DNA from: Anaerovoracaceae bacterium | GTDB lineage: Bacteria > Bacillota > Clostridia > Peptostreptococcales > Anaerovoracaceae | Assembly: GCA_047637815.1 (NCBI GenBank) | Contig: JBLJBD010000058.1 | Location: 1 to 55,661 of the forward strand | DNA length: 55,661 nucleotides | Direction: 5' to 3' | Shown here: positions 3,824-31,238 of the stretch, piece by piece | Numbering within the stretch: position 1 is the first letter of the stretch | How the letters are laid out: each line of letters begins with the position of its first letter | Notes under the pieces: generated by a model | What the model was told of the DNA's origin: nothing | Databases searched by the model: none | Seen by the model: the letters and a program-made list of their open reading frames with translations, nothing else | Made by a program: the position numbers and the translations under genes

Positions 3824-6011
3824 GTGCTTCTCCTCCGTCAGTCAGATAAGGTTGAACCCTTTTGGTGTACAAGCGGTAAAGCAGATCAAAAGCCAGGATG
3901 GCGATGATGCCCAGCACTATTCCGAAAAGCAGAGAATATCCGGTCCGGAAAAATCCCAGGTAAAGGGGCGTCCGGATATGCATGAAGGTGTTGATGACCG
4001 AAGTCACTCCGATACCTCCCGCAAGGCCGAATACCACGGTCCAGAGCCGCAGTTTCCGGATAGAGGTATACACCATCAGCATAATAGCCGGGAAAGCAAA
4101 GAGAAACTCTTTCGTTCTGGGTCTTGCAATCAGGGTGTCCTCCAAGCGGTTTCGGAAAAGCATCTCCACGCTGGAGACTTGAATGGAGGAGTCGTGGCCG
4201 GTCCTCATGATGTAATACGCTCCCATGGCCCCCAGCACGCCAGCCAGCAGGATCATCCAGACCTTGATGCTGGTATTCAGCATGTCCTTCATATCCAGAA
4301 TTTCCAGTTTCCCCGGTTCTTCCTTCCGATTTCCAAAGCCGTAATAGGAAAGGTAAGCAATGGCAAAATAGGCAAGGGGCAGCAATTGGGCAGCCTTGAC
4401 TCCGCGGAATATGTCAATTTCCAGCATATAGCTGACAGAAGAAAGGGGTGCTGCTGTCATCACGCCTCCGATCAGCGCTACCAGAACCGAAAGGATCAGG
4501 GTCAGGACAGCTGCCGGCAGGATCAAGGCAACCGAAGCATTCTTGTCCATCTTTTCCGCATACTCCCGGCTCATCCGGGTGAATACCGTGATCGCCAGGC
4601 AGCCGAAAAGCACAGCAGCAGCAAAACTGACCGCCAGTTCCAGCATCCCCGGGAAGGCAAAGGCGATACCTAAAACCCCGGCGATGCCCAAGACCCCCAG
4701 AATCCCTTTACCTTTTCGCCCGATGGGCAGGAACGCATCCAAGAGCAGCAGGCCGGCAAACACACACCCCATCCCCAGAAGGATCTTGAGGATCGGACTG
4801 GTCTGAAGAGCCGGCATTACCGATGCAGAATCCCTGGTGATGCCATGTTCACTCAAGCGAGCTTCCAGGTTTTCAAACATCTGTTGGTAAACCTGGGGAT
4901 CTGTCACATAGGTGTGAAGATCCTTGAACTCCATAACCGGCTTAAAATAAATGACTCGGATGTTTCTCTCCGTAATTGCCCGGAACAAGGTGTTTTCAAT
5001 TTCTTCCGCCCCTGGATACCCATAGTACTGATACCGGTTCTGGATATAATTCCAGACAGAAAAGACCCGGACCGTCTGATAATCATTGGCCTGAGCGATG
5101 GATTCCACACCGTACTGCATGATATTCTGAAGCTGGGTGGTGTTTTCAATGAGGCCGATTCGGATTCCATTATCTTTCAGATATTTCTCGGCCCTCTCCG
5201 TACCGTCATCATAGCCGATGACCGCTTCCCCGCCGACGATGATGTACTCCGGCTTGATGTCATATTTTTCATATTCTGAAATGACCGCCTCTGCATATCG
5301 GGTTCCGTTCCAACCGCTGTAGCTCAAGGTTCTGGGCACGATTTCCATGCCAGCTTCCTGAATGGCCGCCACTTTATCCGGAAGGAAGCCCAGACTGATG
5401 TACATCAGTTTCGAGCCTTCCAGACCGATTTTTTCCATGAATCCGGCGTTCTTGGAATTCATTTCCTTGTATTTTTCCGTATAAAGGGTCATGTTGGAAG
5501 TGCCATCCAGCAAAATATAGGTATTGTCCCCTTCTGCCACGATAAAATACCGTTCCGGATCCATCCTTTCCCGGATGGCTTCAGCAACAAATCCGCTGGT
5601 TTCGGTGTTCTTGATATCGATCAGGACATCAAAAGAATCAAAGCCATTGGTTTCCAATGCTTCGATCAAGGCTGACGGATACTGTTCCTGCCAACTGGCT
5701 TCTTTGGTGATGATCCCCATCAGTTCGCCGCTGACGGGAACATCGTCATTTTCCATCAGGGAGATAATATTCTCCTCCGTCAGGCCCACTTTGGTTACGC
5801 CCAGCTTATCATGAAAAAATCGAAGCCACCAGGACAGGTCCTGATCGGACTGTTCGGCCATCGCTTCAATTTCATTGTAGTCCAGGACCACATCCACCTG
5901 TTTATTTTTTGCTTCAACCCCCATCCGACTGCCGATGATCAGGGCAGCCAGCAGGAAAGGCAAAAGAATCCCAGCAATCAGGATCCTGTTCTTACGAAAA
6001 AACTCAGTCAT
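3804..6011 (-). CDS. large polytopic membrane protein of unknown function (DUF5693-like): N-terminal anchor, ~380-aa extracytoplasmic domain, multi-TM C-terminal half
   Basis: 735-aa ORF with a hydrophobic N-terminal helix (ILIAGILLPFLLAALIIG). The C-terminal ~330 aa consist of repeated hydrophobic segments. GGGAGAAG lies upstream of the ATG at 6011. The family assignment is from memory of csaB neighbourhoods. Confidence 0.6.
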   Translation of the reverse strand: MTEFFRKNRILIAGILLPFLLAALIIGSRMGVEAKNKQVDVVLDYNEIEAMAEQSDQDLSWWLRFFHDKLGVTKVGLTEENIISLMENDDVPVSGELMGIITKEASWQEQYPSALIEALETNGFDSFDVLIDIKNTETSGFVAEAIRERMDPERYFIVAEGDNTYILLDGTSNMTLYTEKYKEMNSKNAGFMEKIGLEGSKLMYISLGFLPDKVAAIQEAGMEIVPRTLSYSGWNGTRYAEAVISEYEKYDIKPEYIIVGGEAVIGYDDGTERAEKYLKDNGIRIGLIENTTQLQNIMQYGVESIAQANDYQTVRVFSVWNYIQNRYQYYGYPGAEEIENTLFRAITERNIRVIYFKPVMEFKDLHTYVTDPQVYQQMFENLEARLSEHGITRDSASVMPALQTSPILKILLGMGCVFAGLLLLDAFLPIGRKGKGILGVLGIAGVLGIAFAFPGMLELAVSFAAAVLFGCLAITVFTRMSREYAEKMDKNASVALILPAAVLTLILSVLVALIGGVMTAAPLSSVSYMLEIDIFRGVKAAQLLPLAYFAIAYLSYYGFGNRKEEPGKLEILDMKDMLNTSIKVWMILLAGVLGAMGAYYIMRTGHDSSIQVSSVEMLFRNRLEDTLIARPRTKEFLFAFPAIMLMVYTSIRKLRLWTVVFGLAGGIGVTSVINTFMHIRTPLYLGFFRTGYSLLFGIVLGIIAILAFDLLYRLYTKRVQPYLTDGGEALDKETF

Positions 6012-23348: not shown

Positions 23349-24183
23349 CTGCCTTCTCCAAGGTGATCCGGCCAATCTGACCGGAGCGGAATTCGTCCAG
23401 CACCGTTCGGGCCGTCCGTTCATAGTCGATTCGTTTGCCCGGCAGGATGAATCCCCGGTTCCGGCTGATCTGTTCCATGGTTTCCAGCGCCTCTTCCGAT
23501 ACCTCTTCCAGCTTGTACCTGGCCTTTAAGAGTTTCGGATAATCCTCCTGGAGCACCCGGATCAGTTCCAGGGCCAGGGTAGGAAGGTCCATGACCTCAT
23601 CCTTGATGGACCCGCAGAAGGCCAGGTTCAGCCCCGCTTTGGGATCTTCAAACTTGGGCCATAAGATTCCCGGAGTATCCAAAAGCTGCATATCCTGCTG
23701 AATCGTGAGCCACTGTTTACCCCTGGTGACCCCGGGCCGGTCTCCCACCTGGGTGCTTTTCCGGCCGGTCAGCCGGTTGATCAGGGAGGATTTTCCCACA
23801 TTGGGAACTCCAACGATCATGAGCCGAAGAGTTTTCTTCAGGATTTGACCCTCATTTTTGTTCTTCTGCACTGCCAGGAGCAGGGACATCAGGTCGTTGA
23901 TTCCTCCTCCGATCATGCAGTTCATTCCCAGCACGCTGCTTCCCTCCCGGGTAAACCGCTGGGACCACCGAATGGTCTCCGAAGGATCAGCCAGATCCGT
24001 TTTATTCAGGATCACGATCCTTTTTTTCTCTCCGATGATCTCATGGAGAATGGGATTCCTGCTGGAATCCGGTATTCTGGCATCCAGGACCTCAATGACC
24101 GCATCCACCATCTTTAAATTGTCCTGGATCATTTCCCGGGTCTTTTTCATGTGCCCCGGGTACCAGTTAATATTCTCTATCAT
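23329..24183 (-). CDS. rbgA: ribosome biogenesis GTPase YlqF/RbgA
   Basis: Circularly permuted GTPase: NWYPGHM, LNKTDL and GVPNVGKSSLIN. The conserved rplS-ylqF-rnhB order supports the call. Confidence 0.92.
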   Translation of the reverse strand: MIENINWYPGHMKKTREMIQDNLKMVDAVIEVLDARIPDSSRNPILHEIIGEKKRIVILNKTDLADPSETIRWSQRFTREGSSVLGMNCMIGGGINDLMSLLLAVQKNKNEGQILKKTLRLMIVGVPNVGKSSLINRLTGRKSTQVGDRPGVTRGKQWLTIQQDMQLLDTPGILWPKFEDPKAGLNLAFCGSIKDEVMDLPTLALELIRVLQEDYPKLLKARYKLEEVSEEALETMEQISRNRGFILPGKRIDYERTARTVLDEFRSGQIGRITLEKADGDEKK

Positions 24184-24199
24184 AAGTCACCCCCGATAT

Positions 24200-24227
24200 A
24201 AAAACAAGGGAACCCGCTGGTTCCCTT
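24200..24227 (-). terminator. intrinsic (possibly partial) terminator after rplS
   Basis: 9-bp stem AAGGGAACC / GGTTCCCTT with a 4-nt loop, followed on the minus strand by GTTTTTA. Confidence 0.6.
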
Positions 24228-24231
24228 TTGT

Positions 24232-24576
24232 TTATTGATCTTTGCTCTTGATTCTTGCTGCTTTACCAGTTCTCTGACGCATATAGTTCAGTTTAGCTCT
24301 TCTCACATCGCCTTTTCTGACTACTTCGATCTTGTCGATCTTCGGTGAGTGAATCGGGAATGTCTTTTCGACGCCGACACCGGATGCGATTCTTCTGACA
24401 GTAAAGGTTTCGTTGAGACCGCCGTTCTGCTTTTTCAGAACAAAGCCTTCAAAAATCTGGATACGTTCTCTGGTACCTTCCTTGATCTTGATGTGCACTT
24501 TAACGGTATCACCGACTCCAAAGGAAGGAACTTCCTTCTTCGCAAATTCTTCGTTGATTAAATCCATTACATTCAT
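24232..24576 (-). CDS. rplS: 50S ribosomal protein L19
   Basis: 114 aa with [19 protein letters not shown] and TFTVRR. Confidence 0.97.
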
Positions 24577-24717: not shown

Positions 24718-25608
24718 TCAAGCCCGGGGGTGGGTCTTGTCATAGACCTCCTTGATCCGGTTTTTCGTTACGGTGAGATAGACCTGGGTAGCGGTCACAT
24801 CTTCATGGCCCAGCAGTTCCTGAAGAGACTTCAGATCCGCCCCGTTCTGAACCATGTGGGCTGCAAAGGAATTCCGCAGGATCTGGGGGGTAATGGCTTT
24901 GTCGATACCGGCCTTCACGCCGTAATCCTTCAGCATTTTCCAGATTCCCTGCCGAGTGATCCGTTCTCCGTTATAATTGACAAAGAGGGATTTTTCCGAA
25001 TTTTTTTTGGAGCGGAGCAGCTTCGGCCTGGCATCGTAAAGATACTCTTCCAGCGCTGCCCGGGCCGGCCTTCCGATGGGTACGATTCTGGCCTTGCCGA
25101 ACTCGCCGGTACAAGTGATGAAGCCGACCCGAAGATTCAGGTCCTCCACATTGGCCTCCAGTACTTCACTGACTCGGATGCCGGTAGCATACAGCAGTTC
25201 CAGCAGAGCCCGGTCCCGAATACCTTTCACGGTTGTATCGGGAAGCATGAGCAGGCGATCCACTTCTCCCAACGTCAGATACTCGATTTCTTTTCTCTCC
25301 ACCCGGGGGGATTTGATGTGAAGGCAGGGGTTGGCAGAAATCCGGCCTTGTTCCTGTAGAAAGGAGAAAAATCCTCGCAGAGAGGCCACCTTCCGGTTAG
25401 AAGTTGCCGTGCTCCTCCCCAGATTCTTCAGGTGCAGGACAAAGGCTACGATTTCCGTATTACTGATATCCTCCGGGGAAAGACTCCCCCGCTGATCCAG
25501 AAAAGCCTGAAATTCCCGGATATCCCGGAGATACGCCTCCGTAGAGTTCCGGGCCATTCCCTTCACTTTTTCCATATATTCCTTGTAGTCATCCATCAAT
25601 CGATTCAT
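24718..25608 (-). CDS. xerD: site-specific tyrosine recombinase XerC/XerD family
   Basis: About 296 aa with an N-terminal SAM-like domain and a catalytic region: ATGIRVSE, LRNSFAAHMVQNGADLKSLQELLGHEDVTATQVYLTV. The ATG at 25608 is preceded by GGGAGG. The XerD versus XerC assignment is tentative. Confidence 0.8.
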   Translation of the reverse strand: MNRLMDDYKEYMEKVKGMARNSTEAYLRDIREFQAFLDQRGSLSPEDISNTEIVAFVLHLKNLGRSTATSNRKVASLRGFFSFLQEQGRISANPCLHIKSPRVERKEIEYLTLGEVDRLLMLPDTTVKGIRDRALLELLYATGIRVSEVLEANVEDLNLRVGFITCTGEFGKARIVPIGRPARAALEEYLYDARPKLLRSKKNSEKSLFVNYNGERITRQGIWKMLKDYGVKAGIDKAITPQILRNSFAAHMVQNGADLKSLQELLGHEDVTATQVYLTVTKNRIKEVYDKTHPRA

Positions 25609-26137
25609 GCTGCCTCCCAACTACCATCAGGATTGCCGCCAGGGTTTTTCCATCCTCGATCTCACCCCGTAGGGCCTTCTGGTATAGTTCCCCCAGAGGG
25701 TATTCCTCTGTTTCGATGGACTCCGTGTCGTCCGGTTCCGGCTCACCAGGAGTCAGATTTCTGCATAGGAACAGGTGTATGCATTCCGTTGTATAACCCA
25801 CGGAAGGATAGAACCGCCCCAGAAATTCCATGGATCCGGCCGTATATCCGGTTTCTTCCTTGAGTTCCCGGGCAGCTGTCCATGAGGGTTCCTCTCCTTC
25901 TTCCAGCTTCCCTGCAGGGATTTCCAGAATATCCCGGGATAGGGCTTTCCGATACTGGCGAACCAGCACCATCTTCCCATCGTCGGTAAGAGCTGCCAGG
26001 CCGACACCCCCCCGATGCTCCACGATTTCCCGATGGGTGACGCCTCCATCTGCAGAATGGACCAGATCCTTCCTCAGGTTCAGAATCTTTCCTTTATATA
26101 GATACTGGCTTTCAATGGTTTCTTCCTTAAATATCAT
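25589..26137 (-). CDS. nudF: NUDIX hydrolase, ADP-ribose pyrophosphatase type
   Basis: Nudix box GKLEEGEEPSWTAARELKEETG. 182 aa. Confidence 0.8.
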   Translation of the reverse strand: MIFKEETIESQYLYKGKILNLRKDLVHSADGGVTHREIVEHRGGVGLAALTDDGKMVLVRQYRKALSRDILEIPAGKLEEGEEPSWTAARELKEETGYTAGSMEFLGRFYPSVGYTTECIHLFLCRNLTPGEPEPDDTESIETEEYPLGELYQKALRGEIEDGKTLAAILMVVGRQHESIDG

Positions 26138-26937
26138 TTTTTCTCCATTTGACGGGATTTCTCTGCGGCAGCCCGAAAGCCTTCCATCACCTTTTCTTCA
26201 AATCCATTTTCCTGGAGTTTTTTCACCGCTTCGATGGTGGTTCCTCCCGGGGAACAGACATTAATCCTCAGCTGCTCCGGGTCGATGCCGGTTTCCAGCA
26301 CCATTTTAGCAGCTCCCAGCACAGCCTGAGCGGCAAAAAGAAGGCTGTTTTCTCTGCTGAGCCCACCGGCTTCTGCTGCTTTTGCCAGAGCATCGATGTA
26401 CATATAGGTATAGGCGGGGCTGCTGCCGGAAACACCGATGACCGTATGGATCTGCTCTTCTTCCACTTCACAGGCTCTTCCGATGGATTCCAAAATGCGA
26501 AAAGCCCTGGAAAAAGCTTCTTCGCTAACCTTTTCATTTCGGCATACGGCTGTCATCCCTTCTCCCACCATGGCCGGGGTATTGGGCATGATCCGGATGA
26601 CGGGAATATCCTCCCCCAGAAAACGGCTGATGTAGCCGATACTGATGCCTGCCGCCATAGAAACAATCAGTTTATCCGAAGTCATCCATTCCGCCATTTC
26701 CGGCAGAACCTGATCAAAACTCCCCGGCTTCACCCCAACAAATATCAGGTCGGCTTTCCGGGTCAGTTCCCGGATATCCCCGCAGGGACTGATGCCCAGC
26801 TCTTCCCGGAGTTTTTTCAGTTTATCCTGATCCGGATCCGTCACATAGACCTGTTCCGGCCGGAGCTCTCCTCCTGCCAGGCAGCCTCTCAGTATGGCAC
26901 CTCCCATGTTTCCTGCTCCAATAAAGCCTATGTTCAT
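26134..26937 (-). CDS. proC: pyrroline-5-carboxylate reductase
   Basis: IGFIGAGNMGGAI Rossmann motif and C-terminal SPGGTTIEA. The stop forms an ATGA overlap with the nudF start. Confidence 0.93.
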   Translation of the reverse strand: MNIGFIGAGNMGGAILRGCLAGGELRPEQVYVTDPDQDKLKKLREELGISPCGDIRELTRKADLIFVGVKPGSFDQVLPEMAEWMTSDKLIVSMAAGISIGYISRFLGEDIPVIRIMPNTPAMVGEGMTAVCRNEKVSEEAFSRAFRILESIGRACEVEEEQIHTVIGVSGSSPAYTYMYIDALAKAAEAGGLSRENSLLFAAQAVLGAAKMVLETGIDPEQLRINVCSPGGTTIEAVKKLQENGFEEKVMEGFRAAAEKSRQMEKK

Positions 26938-26944
26938 CCTTCGC

Positions 26945-27742
26945 TCACTTTCCTAAAAAAACCGTTCCGGTTTCCTTTTCTCTCATCCCGTCCAGCAGGA
27001 TGTTCATCTTTTTTCCATTCAGCAGAATCATGGGAATCCCGTAGGAATTCACCTTTCTTGCTGCCTCGATCTTCGTCACGATGCCACCGGTCCCAAAACT
27101 GCTGGTACCCCGGACATCGATTTCCTCCAGAAGCCGATCCACTCCGTGAATCTCCTCGATCAGCCGGGCATCCCCGTTGGACTTGGGGTCTTTGTCGTAT
27201 AATCCGTCGATATCGCTGAGCAGTACCAGCAGGTCTGCATTCCACAGGTTGGCCGCCAGGGCACTGAGGGTATCGTTATCTCCGATTTTAATTTCTTCCA
27301 CGCTGACCGAATCGTTTTCATTAATAATGGGGACCACCCCTTCGTCCACCAGGGTAAACAGGGTGTTCCGAATATTCAGGGTCCGGGTGGGGTCATTGAA
27401 ATCCTCCCGGGTCAGCAGCATCTGAGCCACATGGACGTCAAAATCTGCAAAGTATTCTTTGTAAGCCATCATCAGTTCCACCTGACCGATAGCGCATAGT
27501 GCCTGCTTATAATTGATGTCTCCCCGCCGTTCCCATTTATTGATGGCTCCTACACCGCAGATCCCGGCGCCGGAAGACACGATGATGACCTGCTTGCCCA
27601 GCTTCATCAGCTCACAGGCCTGTTCCACGATATTGTGAAGCAACTGGTTGTTGACCGTTCCTGTCTCGGTTGACAGAACATTGCTGCCAATCTTGATGAC
27701 GATCTTTCTGCTGCTTCCGATGATCTGACTGAGTTTGCTCAT
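26945..27742 (-). CDS. proB: glutamate 5-kinase (short form without PUA domain)
   Basis: IVIKIGSNVL, VSSGAG, NENDSV and GTGGIVTKIEAA. Only 265 aa. Confidence 0.92.
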   Translation of the reverse strand: MSKLSQIIGSSRKIVIKIGSNVLSTETGTVNNQLLHNIVEQACELMKLGKQVIIVSSGAGICGVGAINKWERRGDINYKQALCAIGQVELMMAYKEYFADFDVHVAQMLLTREDFNDPTRTLNIRNTLFTLVDEGVVPIINENDSVSVEEIKIGDNDTLSALAANLWNADLLVLLSDIDGLYDKDPKSNGDARLIEEIHGVDRLLEEIDVRGTSSFGTGGIVTKIEAARKVNSYGIPMILLNGKKMNILLDGMREKETGTVFLGK

Positions 27743-27783
27743 TTTTTAATTCCTTTCAGGGGCGTGATAATACCCGATTAATC

Positions 27784-27813
27784 ATTATACTCCAAAAATG
27801 CGGCTATTTTCAA
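27784..27813 (-). promoter_or_regulatory. sigma-A promoter for proB-proC (TTGAAA-18 nt-TATAAT)
   Basis: Minus strand reads TTGAAA (27813..27808), an 18-nt spacer, then TATAAT (27789..27784). Confidence 0.55.
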
Positions 27814-27857
27814 TATATTATGACTACTAATTTCCCTAAAAAATTTTCATAATCATA

Positions 27858-27886
27858 CTTGAAATAGATAAAATTATTGGTTATAA
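27858..27886 (+). promoter_or_regulatory. consensus-like sigma-A promoter (TTGAAA-17 nt-TATAAT) driving the short C-rich RNA
   Basis: TTGAAA at 27858-27863, a 17-nt spacer, then TATAAT at 27881-27886. Confidence 0.6.
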
Positions 27887-27892
27887 TGGTCT

Positions 27893-27998
27893 CGTGGTTA
27901 TCCCCCTGATAACCTCATTAATCTCTAATCCCAAAATACCCCTTTTGAACAAAATGGACTGCTCCCCTGCGGTCTGTTTTGTTTTTTGGTTTTTTTTG
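27893..27998 (+). ncRNA. candidate ~105-nt C-rich small RNA, or a cis-acting attenuator
   Basis: Bounded by the promoter above and a strong terminator. The terminator has a ~15-bp stem (27946-27961 / 27968-27983, three G-U pairs), loop UCCCCU and a long U tract. The 5' hairpin GGTTATC/GATAACC (27895-27901 / 27907-27913) has a CCCCU loop. Unpaired CCC lies at 27929-27931 and CCCC at 27938-27941. No SD-preceded ORF is present. Confidence 0.5.
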
Positions 27999-28004
27999 CT
28001 ATAA
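27996..28004 (+). promoter_or_regulatory. extended -10 promoter (TGCTATAAT) for the YprB-like gene
   Basis: TG-C-TATAAT at 27996-28004, immediately after the terminator U tract and 31 nt before the ATG at 28035. There is no good -35. Confidence 0.4.
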
Positions 28005-28034
28005 TGGGTATAAAACAAACCGAGAGGTATCTCT

Positions 28035-29048
28035 ATGATTTCACGAATCATTGCCTCCTACCAGGAGGAATTTTATCATTCCCGGCTTTTTAACCAGTAT
28101 TTCGGGGAAAGCCGGATTGCTGTCGCCGACATTGAAACCACCGGATTGAACCCCCTCAGCACCGCTTTTATTCTGGGAGGGCTTATTTCCATTCCCGACA
28201 GTACTTCCGAGCAGTACTTTACCGAAGACCCTGCCATGGAACCAGAGCTGCTGACGGATTTTCTCAGAAGGCTGACCGACTTTGATGTGATCATTACCTA
28301 TAATGGCCAGTCTTTTGACCTGCCATTTCTCCTGAAGCGGGCAGAACATCATCGGCTGACCATTCCCCGGGATCTGCCCTACAATCTGGATCTCTACATG
28401 ATCCTGAACGGCCATTCCAATCTCCGCCGTTTCCTTCCGGACCTGAAGCAGAAAACCATCGAAAATTTTCTGGGCCTATTCAGTGACCGCCAGGATGAGA
28501 TTTCAGGCAGGGAAAGCGTCGAACTCTATTTCAGCTATTTGCGGACGAAAAATCCGGAGACCAGAGAAAAAATCCTTCTTCACAATCGGGATGACATCCA
28601 TCAGCTTGCCCGGCTGCTCCCCATCATCGAAAAGGTCAATTTCCAAAAGGCGATGCACCAAATGGGCTTTCCCCTTGCCAATGCTCCCGTAAAGGGAACC
28701 GGTCTGCTGATTCGATCCGTCAGCCTGGGAAATCGGGAACTGAGTGTCTCCGGTGTCCAACGGCACCAGCCGGTGGAATTTCACTCCTTTGGTACCGTCC
28801 AAGCCGGCTATCGGGCCGCCTTTGACCGTAATGAAGGGGATTTTCGACTGTCCCTGCCCCTCTTCAGAATTGGGGAATTCACGGTGGTGGATGCGGCGAA
28901 ATACCTGAAGGAGCTTGCCCCTCTGGAAAAATACCCTTCTCTGCAGGATGGATTCCTGATCCTGCAGGATGACAGGGAAATCCGTTATCAGGAACTCCAT
29001 CACTTCATTCAACTGTTTCTCAAAACCATCGGAGGTCAGATATCATGA
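28035..29048 (+). CDS. RNase H-like (YprB/MrfB-like, DEDD-type) exonuclease domain protein
   Basis: N-terminal IAVADIETTGL (Exo I-like), ITYNGQSFDLPFL (Exo II-like) and HNRDDIHQLARL (Exo III-like). The C-terminal ~130 aa are unassigned. Confidence 0.65.
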   Translation: MISRIIASYQEEFYHSRLFNQYFGESRIAVADIETTGLNPLSTAFILGGLISIPDSTSEQYFTEDPAMEPELLTDFLRRLTDFDVIITYNGQSFDLPFLLKRAEHHRLTIPRDLPYNLDLYMILNGHSNLRRFLPDLKQKTIENFLGLFSDRQDEISGRESVELYFSYLRTKNPETREKILLHNRDDIHQLARLLPIIEKVNFQKAMHQMGFPLANAPVKGTGLLIRSVSLGNRELSVSGVQRHQPVEFHSFGTVQAGYRAAFDRNEGDFRLSLPLFRIGEFTVVDAAKYLKELAPLEKYPSLQDGFLILQDDREIRYQELHHFIQLFLKTIGGQIS

Positions 29049-29971
29049 GAACCAAAACACGACTGGATCAGGTTTTTGCAGATGCCTTTCCCGTCCCCTT
29101 CGACGAAAAGTCTAAGTTTGTCTTCTTCAGCGATCATCACCGGGGAGATGACAGCCTTTCCGACGAATTTGGGAGGAACAAGCACATTTTCAATCATGCA
29201 CTGAATTATTATTATGAAAATGACTTCACCTACGTGGAAGTCGGTGACGGGGACGAGCTCTGGGAGCACGCCAATTTTGAGCATATCCGAAGCGCTCATG
29301 CCAAAACCTTTGATCTGCTTAAAAGCTTTTTTGATTCGGGACGGATGCTGATGCTTTTCGGCAATCACAACATGAAGTACCGAAAGAAGCATCACGTAGA
29401 AAAAGACCTTTACCAGGTCTTCGACGAATACCAGAATGAAACGGTGGAACTCTTCCCCGGTATCGACGTCCACGAAGCCCTGATCCTGACCCACCGGAAG
29501 ACCGGACAGGAAGTCTTCGTGGTCCACGGCCACCAGGGAGATCTGCTCAATGACCATCTGGCCGGAATCTCCTACGTCCTGATTCGATTTTTATGGCGCT
29601 TCATGCACCTGGTGGGGGTCAAATATGCGGCCAGCCCGGCTAAAAGCCGTCGAAAAAGGCATAAGGTCGAAAAAAATTATACCAAATGGAACCAGGATCA
29701 TGATACAATGATAATTTGTGGGCACACTCACAGACCTAAATTTCCCAGAGCCGGAGAAGAAGCCTACTTCAACTGCGGCTGCTGTATGCACCCCCGGGGA
29801 ATCAACTGCCTGGAGATTCTATACGATCAGATCATTCTGGTCAACTGGGGAGCCGATACAAAAAAAGATGGTTCCATGTATATCAAACGAACTGCCGTAC
29901 AGGGTCCTGAGCCAATCGAAAGCTTCCAGAAGCGGCCCAGAGAAAAGGAGGATTTGAACGATGAACTATAA
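29045..29971 (+). CDS. metallophosphoesterase (calcineurin-like/LpxH-like)
   Basis: Motifs in order: FFSDHHRGD, GDGDELWE, GNHN, VHGHQGD and GHTHRP. The start forms an ATGA overlap with the upstream gene. Confidence 0.8.
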   Translation: MRTKTRLDQVFADAFPVPFDEKSKFVFFSDHHRGDDSLSDEFGRNKHIFNHALNYYYENDFTYVEVGDGDELWEHANFEHIRSAHAKTFDLLKSFFDSGRMLMLFGNHNMKYRKKHHVEKDLYQVFDEYQNETVELFPGIDVHEALILTHRKTGQEVFVVHGHQGDLLNDHLAGISYVLIRFLWRFMHLVGVKYAASPAKSRRKRHKVEKNYTKWNQDHDTMIICGHTHRPKFPRAGEEAYFNCGCCMHPRGINCLEILYDQIILVNWGADTKKDGSMYIKRTAVQGPEPIESFQKRPREKEDLNDEL

Positions 29972-31238
29972 GGAACTTACCCGCCAGATAAAATTGGACA
30001 GTTATCAGATGTCCAGCCTGCCCCTCTCCCTTCGAAATCAGGCACTGGCGGATATCCGGGACAGCCTCTCTGACCAGCGGGAAAAGATTTTTGCCGCCAA
30101 TCAGGAGGATCTGGACCGTGCCATTCGGAATCAGGAACCCCAGCCCATCATCAACCGACTGGTCTTTGATCACCACAAACTGGATGATGTGATTCAGGGA
30201 TTGGAAAGCCTGATCGGCCTTCCGGATCCTCTGTTCCGGGTCCAGCTTCATCGGGAACTGGATCAGGGATTGGTTCTCAAGCGGGAAACCTGCCCCATCG
30301 GTGTCATCGGCGTCATTTTTGAATCCCGGCCGGATGCACTGGTACAGATTTCTTCCCTGTGCATCAAAAGCGGCAACTGTTCCATCCTGAAGGGGGGCCG
30401 GGAAGCCGCTAAAACCAATCGGGCTCTTTTTGACATTATTTACGAAGCCGGAATCAAGGCAGGCCTGCCCGCTGGATTTATGACCCTGGTGGAGAGCCGG
30501 GAGGCGATCGACGAACTGCTTCATTGCGATGAATCCATCGATCTGCTGATTCCCCGGGGATCCAATCAATTCGTTCAGTATATCATGGAGCACTCCCGAA
30601 TCCCGGTTATGGGCCATGCCGACGGTGTCTGCCATGTATACATTGATAAAGATGCCGATCCGGACAAAGCCCTGCCGGTCATCATGGATTCCAAAGTTCA
30701 GTATGTGACCGCCTGCAATACCCTGGAAACCCTTCTGGTCCACCGGGATGTGGCTGGCGAACTGCTCCCTGCTCTGGTGGACAGCAGTTATACCGGAAGC
30801 GTCGAGCTTAGGGGATGTCCGGATACCATGAAGATCATCCCCTGCAATCCTGCTACTGAAAAAGACTACAAGACCGAGTATCTGGATTATATTCTGGCTA
30901 TCCGCATCGTGGACAGCCTGGAAGAAGCCATTGACCATATCAACCGGTATGGCTCCCACCATACGGACTGCATTGTTACCGAAGATCAGCGGTCTGCCGA
31001 CACCTTTATGACCCTGGTGGATTCGGCCAATGCCTATCAGAACTGTTCCACCCGGTTTGCCGACGGATTCCGTTACGGCTTCGGCGCCGAGGTAGGGATC
31101 AGTACCGGGAAACTCCATGCCAGGGGACCGGTAGGGTTGGAAGGTCTGGTAACCTATAAGTACAAACTGACTGGCAATGGCCACATCGTGGCAGACTATG
31201 CCGAAGGACGAAAGAAGTTTAATTTTAAAGAAGTTTAA
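29961..31238 (+). CDS. proA: glutamate-5-semialdehyde dehydrogenase
   Basis: 425 aa with VIGVIFESRPDA, the catalytic region CNTLETLLVH and HTDCIVTED. Overlaps the metallophosphoesterase gene by 11 nt. Confidence 0.93.
   Translation: MNYKELTRQIKLDSYQMSSLPLSLRNQALADIRDSLSDQREKIFAANQEDLDRAIRNQEPQPIINRLVFDHHKLDDVIQGLESLIGLPDPLFRVQLHRELDQGLVLKRETCPIGVIGVIFESRPDALVQISSLCIKSGNCSILKGGREAAKTNRALFDIIYEAGIKAGLPAGFMTLVESREAIDELLHCDESIDLLIPRGSNQFVQYIMEHSRIPVMGHADGVCHVYIDKDADPDKALPVIMDSKVQYVTACNTLETLLVHRDVAGELLPALVDSSYTGSVELRGCPDTMKIIPCNPATEKDYKTEYLDYILAIRIVDSLEEAIDHINRYGSHHTDCIVTEDQRSADTFMTLVDSANAYQNCSTRFADGFRYGFGAEVGISTGKLHARGPVGLEGLVTYKYKLTGNGHIVADYAEGRKKFNFKEV

Follow-up and report, generated by a model that had tools for sequence, protein, structure and literature searches.

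The 55,661-nucleotide (nt) contig JBLJBD010000058.1 of an Anaerovoracaceae bacterium (assembly GCA_047637815.1), which over its full length is the window referred to here, contains a compact unit that runs from a promoter to a terminator and lies between proB and a gene for a YprB-like protein (Table 1). A promoter of the sigma-A type is followed by a 5' hairpin (hairpin 1), an unpaired linker devoid of G and an intrinsic terminator. Each of the four C runs of the unit (27902-06, 27930-32, 27939-42 and 27964-67) lies in a loop or in the linker. The promoter, the hairpin with its CCCCU loop, the C-rich linker and the terminator had already been described in the original prediction, and all of them are present, mostly one base to the right of where they had been placed. 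Transcription is predicted to start at about 27893-27895, 1-3 nt ahead of hairpin 1 and near the G of GUGGUUAUC, and to end at about 27985-27995 within the UUUUGUUUU tract, which gives an RNA of about 95 nt. The stretch from 27890 to 28000 (111 nt) folds with a minimum free energy (MFE) of -32.7 kcal/mol as compared with -13.1 +/- 2.4 kcal/mol for shuffled sequences (z = -8.2), and none of 200 shuffles folded as stably. The second extended -10 element that had been claimed to follow the unit is likewise present. This element, TGCTATAAT, ends the row of signals 29 nt before the ATG of the downstream gene and was found by direct reading; it does not appear in the list of the promoter scan because it has no -35 element. 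In the most likely interpretation, a gene of its own encodes here a non-coding RNA of about 95 nt, whose transcription we infer from these signals.

Table 1 Features of the RNA locus and its flanks in the window
Feature	Position	Strand	Details and basis
Sigma-A type promoter	27859-27887	+	-35 TTGAAA 27859-27864, spacer 17 nt, -10 TATAAT 27882-27887; promoter scan, 11/12 consensus positions
Hairpin 1 (5' hairpin)	27894-27916	+	7-base-pair (bp) stem 27896-27902/27908-27914, outer pair G27894-C27916; MFE fold
C-rich motif 1 (AUCCCCCUG)	27903-27907	+	Loop CCCCU of hairpin 1
Unpaired G-free linker UCAUUAAUCUCUAAUCCCAAAAUACCCCUUUU	27915-27946	+	Single-sequence and consensus folds
C-rich motif 2, UCCC	27929-27932	+	In linker
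C-rich motif 3, ACCCCUUUU	27938-27946	+	In linker; within AUACCCCUUUU 27936-27946
Intrinsic terminator	27947-27998	+	16-bp stem 27947-27962/27969-27984, T tract to 27998; terminator scan
C-rich motif 4 (CUCCCCUG)	27963-27968	+	Terminator loop UCCCCU
36-amino-acid GTG open reading frame	27894-28004		Mechanical list of open reading frames
Extended -10 TGCTATAAT	27997-28005	+	Read from sequence; putative separate promoter for the downstream YprB-like operon
YprB/MrfB-like DEDD exonuclease gene	28035-29048	+	Pfam RNase_H_2, 5e-30; PDB 8un9 (exonuclease MrfB), E = 1.7e-9
proB promoter	27813-27784	-	Promoter scan
proB (glutamate 5-kinase)	26945-27742	-	Pfam AA_kinase, 5e-47; divergent upstream neighbour

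The family to which this RNA belongs was delineated by scanning metagenome contigs with a pattern made of the two linker motifs. At least 120 loci were obtained; this and the family counts given below are among the matches listed. About 117 of these pattern matches are true homologues, while L056, L087 and L108 do not contain the full unit. A covariance model built from four sequences matches 97 of the 100 sources searched, with scores from 34 to 135 bits. Since the pattern fixes 20 bases of the linker by construction, loci were also sampled without it. The RNA is present on all six contigs that were reached through YprB-like proteins with 41-44% identity to that of the window. Five of them have the same linker, and the sixth (L161) differs only by the loss of the G after CCCCUUUU. 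A protein-anchored search of species genomes led to three loci with the element just upstream of the YprB-like gene, in Firmicutes bacterium UBA5559 (94% identity of the YprB-like protein), a Peptostreptococcales metagenome-assembled genome (MAG; 48%) and an Eubacteriales MAG (38%). The RNA is near-identical at these three loci, and compensatory changes occur in both stems. The earlier claim of a stand-alone promoter-to-terminator unit for a non-coding RNA is supported, and the recurrence of this unit in more than 120 independent contigs places it far beyond a chance arrangement.

In an alignment of 97 sequences that was fitted to the structure of the model, which somewhat favours the pairing figures, 98.7% of the stem cells are standard pairs and 21 of 24 pairs show double-sided changes. 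These compensatory changes affect all eight pairs of hairpin 1 and 13 of the 16 pairs of the terminator, where 99% of the cells are paired. None of 500 shuffles reached the observed values, and sliding the partners against each other left 41-54% paired. Compensations that can be read by hand, independent of the fitted alignment, exist as well. Compensatory changes in two stems thus argue for selection on RNA pairing. The loops, which lie outside the search pattern, stay C-rich while the stem sequences vary: CCC is present in loop 1 of 88 and in the terminator loop of 76 of the 97 homologues, and the two loops share (U/A)CCCCUG. About 28 consecutive nucleotides of the linker are near-invariant in hosts whose flanking proteins are only 30-45% identical, and the commonest form of the linker occurs in 61 of the 97 homologues. 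The -10 hexamer TATAAT is exact in 77 of about 105 unique promoters and keeps a fixed distance to hairpin 1; the -35 elements of the family are TTGCA/TTGnnn, mostly TTGnnn, with spacers of 16-18 nt. Synteny and covariation in relatives, which had been named as a check of the original prediction, consequently came out in its favour, with hairpins and C motifs conserved and stems covarying.

Carriers of the RNA are Anaerovoracaceae, Peptostreptococcales and other MAGs labelled "Clostridia bacterium" from digesters, rumen, termite gut and human gut. The viral contigs scanned gave no matches, and a phage origin was rejected on this ground. The RNA was also not found alongside the YprB-like genes of Lachnospiraceae (L004-L036). 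A single copy is present in the 55-kilobase (kb) window when the model is run with filters off, and one copy per locus is found in the other stretches, which measure up to 21 kb. A second copy in the window was rejected: blastn-short finds none, and the sole other match of the model, at 24142-24251 on the plus strand, is weak (18-19 bits, E = 0.026-0.4). This match contains CCCC motifs and a terminator-like hairpin and is judged to be due to chance because it consists of the antisense of a ribosome-binding site of the ylqF/RbgA-like gene (AUAUCGGGGGUGA) and the rplS terminator. If transcribed as predicted, the RNA would rank among the best-conserved small RNAs (sRNAs) in a large section of the Clostridia, most of which is uncultured.

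Two homologues depart from the general layout. At L053 (2667-2754), the promoter, hairpin 1 and the linker are kept, an unrelated sequence takes the place of the terminator and the score drops to 34.5 bits; this may be a rearranged or decaying copy. At L068 (3882-4100), the core of the RNA and the terminator directly follow a tRNA-Arg(ACG) gene (3923-3998) under the tRNA promoter. Here, the RNA has no promoter of its own, and another 5' hairpin that is not C-rich stands in place of hairpin 1. This arrangement suggests co-transcription and processing, and it marks linker and terminator as the indispensable part.

Comparison with known RNA families was performed with Rfam 15, in which no family reached its gathering score anywhere in the window. 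The original prediction had considered an RNA of the RsaE/RoxS type and named a search against all Rfam models, especially RF01820, as a check. This search was run, and RsaE is not listed even at E <= 10, neither with 401 nt nor with 116 nt as query. The RNA is furthermore not located downstream of pepF, and membership in the RsaE/RoxS family was therefore rejected. The best permissive match is LhrC (RF00616) with 19.9-20.4 bits and E = 0.39-1.1; membership was rejected because the score is far below the gathering threshold of 110 bits. The ylbH/CsfG model (RF00516) gave no match on either strand, and membership in this family was rejected both for this reason and because the promoter is of the sigma-A type, TTGnnn-17-TATAAT, and not of the forespore sigma-F/G type. 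Literature searches on C-rich sRNAs in Clostridia, on yprB and on Anaerovoracaceae yielded no paper with the sequence, nothing on the RNA and no characterised regulatory RNA for the carrier lineages. That the element represents a new family of small non-coding RNAs of Clostridia, absent from Rfam, is strongly supported. If the RNA is transcribed as predicted, its covariance model would be a ready resource for genome annotation.

With regard to anatomy, the element resembles sRNAs that display UCCC motifs. LhrC has three CU-rich UCCC sites, located in loop A, a single-stranded segment and the loop of the terminator; each of them shows a (C)UCCC...UUUU motif and binds the Shine-Dalgarno region of lapB (PMC4132741). 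The RNA described here likewise has C motifs in loop 1, linker and terminator loop, and the 3' halves of both RNAs look alike, with CCAAA-nCCC-UUUUGA ahead of a terminator whose loop contains CUCCC. LhrC (clan CL00114) differs in its host, Listeria, where five copies are present, while the RNA of Clostridia is single-copy in every stretch examined. In addition, the promoter of the latter has no known dependence on LisR, and its linker AUUAAUCUCUAAUCCC has no counterpart in LhrC. The Rsa RNAs have in common a hairpin at the 5' end, a terminator and a UCCC that stays unpaired where conservation is highest, and RsaE prevents formation of the initiation complex (PMC2790875). Shared with RsaE/RoxS are several unpaired C-rich boxes including a motif of the ACCCCUUU type, the combination of 5' hairpin and terminator, very high conservation across genera and a tight synteny with an unrelated protein gene. 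The latter has a precedent in this class, since rsaE always resides downstream of pepF, to which it is unrelated (PMC2790875 and PMC4409812). The layout of the secondary structure is different, however, and the RNA of Clostridia is located between proB or spoVS and the YprB-like gene. CsfG, an sRNA that is highly conserved among spore formers, contains CU-rich stretches both in its terminal loops and between its helices (PMC3574147). It corresponds to the reverse strand of the ylbH motif and is sporulation-specific; our RNA is similar in being present in genomes of spore formers beside spoVS and spoIIM but differs in length (about 95 nt as opposed to 136 nt), in its sigma-A instead of sigma-F/G promoter and in genomic context. 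A further point of comparison is provided by sRNAs that arise from 5' leaders through premature termination: at a minority of loci, one promoter would yield both the short RNA and a read-through exonuclease mRNA, whereas no alternative structure that responds to a ligand or factor is present and most loci have a separate downstream promoter. The earlier statement that the C-rich motifs are displayed in loops and a linker, in a Firmicute outside the Bacillales, is supported. This arrangement is the anatomy of UCCC-motif sRNAs, and annotations of relatives place them among MAGs of Anaerovoracaceae, Peptostreptococcales or Eubacteriales. By analogy, we infer that the RNA works like the UCCC-motif sRNAs without belonging to either the LhrC or the RsaE family.

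Such an RNA would probably function as follows. The strong sigma-A promoter would place the transcription start 1-3 nt ahead of a 5' hairpin with a protective role, and the strong intrinsic terminator would define the 3' end. The four displayed C-rich motifs, among which those of the linker are presumed to be the main seed region, would most likely pair in trans with G-rich Shine-Dalgarno or 5' untranslated region (UTR) sequences of several mRNAs and block translation initiation. The model for this view is provided by LhrC, RsaE/RoxS and further UCCC-motif sRNAs from low-GC Gram-positive bacteria. Read-through of the terminator would also feed the MrfB/YprB-like exonuclease operon in lineages without a separate promoter at this position. 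We lean towards this combination of trans-acting pairing and lineage-dependent read-through and consider it somewhat better than an even proposition. If true, the anti-Shine-Dalgarno mechanism of UCCC motifs, which is known from Staphylococcus, Bacillus and Listeria, would also operate in spore-forming anaerobes.

Potential targets in the window were approached by duplex prediction of three unpaired RNA segments against 48 translation-initiation regions. The best duplex has -18.8 kcal/mol with a mean of -11.4 +/- 3.6 kcal/mol, and nothing stands out clearly from the background. Ortholog groups covering several loci showed no consistent complementarity for the initiation regions of proC, nudix, xerC, rplS, ylqF and rnhB either. 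An 8-nt match of UCUAAUCC to the 790-loop region of 16S rRNA and a resemblance of GAUAACCUCAUU to the 3' end of 16S rRNA are judged to be at chance level.

A different picture was obtained for spoVS, which emerged from a scan for long complements of the RNA core. At about 30 loci, this gene is located upstream of the RNA in divergent orientation. Some of the spoVS 5' UTRs contain (U)UCAAAAGGG(G)(U) about 37 nt before the ATG, a 10-11 nt complement of ACCCCUUUUGAA, and these UTRs also have AUUAAU(AGG)GAGG over the Shine-Dalgarno sequence, which is complementary to CCUCAUUAAU. Such UTRs lie, on the minus strand relative to the RNA, at L157:2684-2760, L162:9657-9740 and L107:418-500, and also at L045, L060, L070, L042, L057, L061, L062 and L160. 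spoVS ranks first for duplex energy among all called genes at 6 of 13 loci, as compared with 1.2 expected. In addition, 25 perfect Spo0A boxes (TGTCGAA/TTCGACA) are present in 16 of 112 unique promoters of the RNA, whereas shuffled sequences contain 1.3 +/- 1.2. These boxes are located about 45 and about 75 nt upstream of hairpin 1 and form an inverted pair in the intergenic region of spoVS and the RNA (L003, L042, L045, L057, L061, L102, L110, L119, L160 and L162). They could serve spoVS, the RNA or both; the window's own RNA promoter has no Spo0A box. The predicted pairing makes the spoVS 5' UTR a candidate target in some lineages, and together with the Spo0A boxes it provides a concrete candidate for a link between an sRNA and sporulation. 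Taken further, the RNA might be a sporulation-linked riboregulator of Clostridia that represses spoVS translation by a two-site duplex where spoVS is the divergent neighbour, with CCCCUUUUGAA pairing with UUCAAAAGGGG and CCUCAUUAAU covering the Shine-Dalgarno sequence. We regard this as rather unlikely. If true, and given the perfect Spo0A boxes of the shared intergenic region, the Spo0A/SpoVS circuit would gain its first sRNA of wide conservation outside the model species.

A number of observations weigh against a trans-acting RNA as outlined above. The top pairings in the window reach -18 to -19 kcal/mol, no more than about two standard deviations off the mean; they involve a diacylglycerol-kinase-like gene, ylqF and a DUF5693 gene. 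Any C-rich seed would favour Shine-Dalgarno regions. The neighbouring genes yprB, proA, proB and the metallophosphoesterase gene show no conserved complementarity to the RNA. The spoVS lead is post hoc and limited to related lineages, with other groups of spoVS UTRs lacking it, and no spoVS resides within the 55 kb of the window. Start and 3' end of the RNA are predictions from sequence. The near-invariant linker of about 28 nt exceeds the usual length of a seed and could equally be a protein-binding site. The RNA is linked very tightly to the YprB-like gene, at about 88-90% of loci, and at about 12 loci a Shine-Dalgarno sequence and an ATG follow 13-29 nt past the terminator with no room for a promoter, which would suit a leader function. 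The latter loci include L038, L040, L069, L085, L104, L121, L124, L125, L138 and L144, and transcription of the YprB-like gene must be driven by read-through there.

These last two points also favour a different explanation, according to which the unit is a cis-acting leader or attenuator of the YprB-like exonuclease operon: the terminator sets the level of read-through, either constitutively or via a factor that could bind the conserved C-rich linker, and the short RNA is a by-product. The YprB-like gene indeed lies directly downstream on the same strand at 91 of the about 108 loci that have a downstream open reading frame, even though the proteins have a median amino acid identity of only 38% to the protein encoded in the window. 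The RNA is, however, far more conserved than the protein that it supposedly regulates, the YprB-like genes of Lachnospiraceae do without it, and the translation-initiation regions of YprB come last when ranked by their complementarity to it. At about 10% of loci, the YprB-like gene is not downstream or the operon is inverted (L096, L106, L122, L126, L135, L145, L155 and the L047/L075/L131/L147 group), and at L160 an inserted hydrolase gene separates the RNA from the YprB-like gene. An element resembling a -10 hexamer is present between the terminator and the start of the YprB-like gene at 68 of 93 unique loci, 28 of which look leaderless, although these counts are only approximate because the hexamer criterion is permissive in AT-rich DNA. 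Given this frequency and the loci without the gene or with an inverted one, an obligate 5' UTR leader was rejected. The consensus fold consists of two hairpins only and offers no antiterminator, i.e., no structure that competes with the 16-bp terminator. When the 3' arm of the terminator is removed, the fold (-10.2 kcal/mol) contains only hairpin 1 and a 5-bp helix that is weak and not conserved. A riboswitch-type attenuator was rejected since mutually exclusive terminator and antiterminator structures are lacking. The alternative offered by the original prediction, a cis-acting attenuator of the YprB-proA operon, hence keeps the position of the RNA, mostly directly upstream, and the need for read-through at some loci but loses the switch itself. 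On balance, we hold the cis-acting explanation to be unlikely but worth keeping in mind.

Alternatively, the RNA might bind a protein. The linker and the two CCCCUG loops would then act as a platform which either sequesters a protein or makes the RNA a partner in a ribonucleoprotein. Candidates for the protein are Hfq, one that recognises C-rich sequences (of the KH type or another) and the MrfB-like exonuclease encoded next to the RNA. Its near-invariant stretch is longer than typical seeds, the loop sequence is common to both hairpins, and the adjacency to a single protein family is persistent. On the other hand, no known binding motif was recognised (there are no GGA motifs for CsrA and no repeats), and the RNA is retained at loci without an adjacent exonuclease gene. 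The MrfB-type enzyme is a DNA exonuclease and is not known to have an RNA partner. Taken together, a protein-binding role appears quite unlikely, and a functional unit of the RNA with the MrfB-like exonuclease is a more speculative idea than the sporulation-linked riboregulator described above. A type III toxin-antitoxin system similar to ToxIN was rejected, because blastn against the window reveals a single RNA unit without repeats; moreover, the gene downstream belongs to a housekeeping block and encodes a DEDD exonuclease similar to MrfB, not an endoribonuclease toxin. Finally, the extreme conservation of the DNA sequence and the XerC-like recombinase gene in the same block could speak for an element that acts at the DNA level, as an operator or recombination site in the xerC-yprB block, and the 36-amino-acid open reading frame for a small peptide gene, neither of which would involve a functional RNA. 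The core sequence is not palindromic, though, and compensatory changes in two stems as well as a promoter and terminator kept at fixed distances speak against both. The open reading frame lacks a Shine-Dalgarno sequence, and homologues have GAG, GCG or AAG in the place of its GTG. Its frame is broken by the A run that separates motifs 2 and 3, the length of which ranges from 2 to 4 nt (CCC(A)2-4UACCCC). A small peptide gene was rejected on account of the non-conserved start codon and of insertions or deletions of 1-2 nt that shift the frame, in agreement with the earlier statement that no open reading frame led by a Shine-Dalgarno sequence fits inside the unit. We consider a DNA element or peptide gene extremely improbable.

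Proximity to proline genes and the CCN-rich content of the RNA had led to the idea of a connection with proline. A leader-peptide attenuator with proline codons was rejected, as there is no conserved open reading frame, start codon or Shine-Dalgarno sequence; the variable start codon and the frame-shifting A run make this idea fail. Many homologous loci have no adjacent proline genes, and the association in the window is therefore an accident of synteny. The proposed link thus finds no support.

Concerning the genomic neighbourhood, the minus strand of the window carries proB, proC, a NUDIX gene and a XerC-like gene, while the YprB-like gene, the metallophosphoesterase gene, proA (Aldedh) and an ABC-F gene reside on the plus strand. 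The proB promoter does not overlap the RNA. One strand of the conserved block holds xerC and nudix, to which proC, proB or spoVS may be added; the opposite strand carries the RNA and the YprB-like gene, in some cases together with the metallophosphoesterase gene and proA. The upstream neighbour of the RNA differs by locus and is proB, proC, nudix, xerC or spoVS. Judged by its sequence, the YprB-like protein of the window is a distant relative of the Bacillus subtilis exonuclease MrfB. The YprB-like protein P0043 of Clostridium aminobutyricum shows 44% identity to it. Many genes for YprB/MrfB-like exonucleases appear to be leaderless or nearly so: at the 28 loci mentioned above, an extended -10 element (TGnTATAAT) is located only 6-12 nt before the ATG (examples are L046, L055, L065, L071, L115, L127, L141 and L154), as compared with a gap of 29 nt in the window.

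In the window (24718-31238) as well as at L001, L002 and L158-L162, the proline genes are divided over a pair of divergent operons, with proC-proB on one side and the yprB-like gene, the metallophosphoesterase gene and proA on the other. The same block also includes xerC, nudix, spoIIM, rplS, the gene for a YlqF-like GTPase and rnhB and is widely conserved. The proB product is short, comprising 265 amino acids and the AA_kinase domain only.

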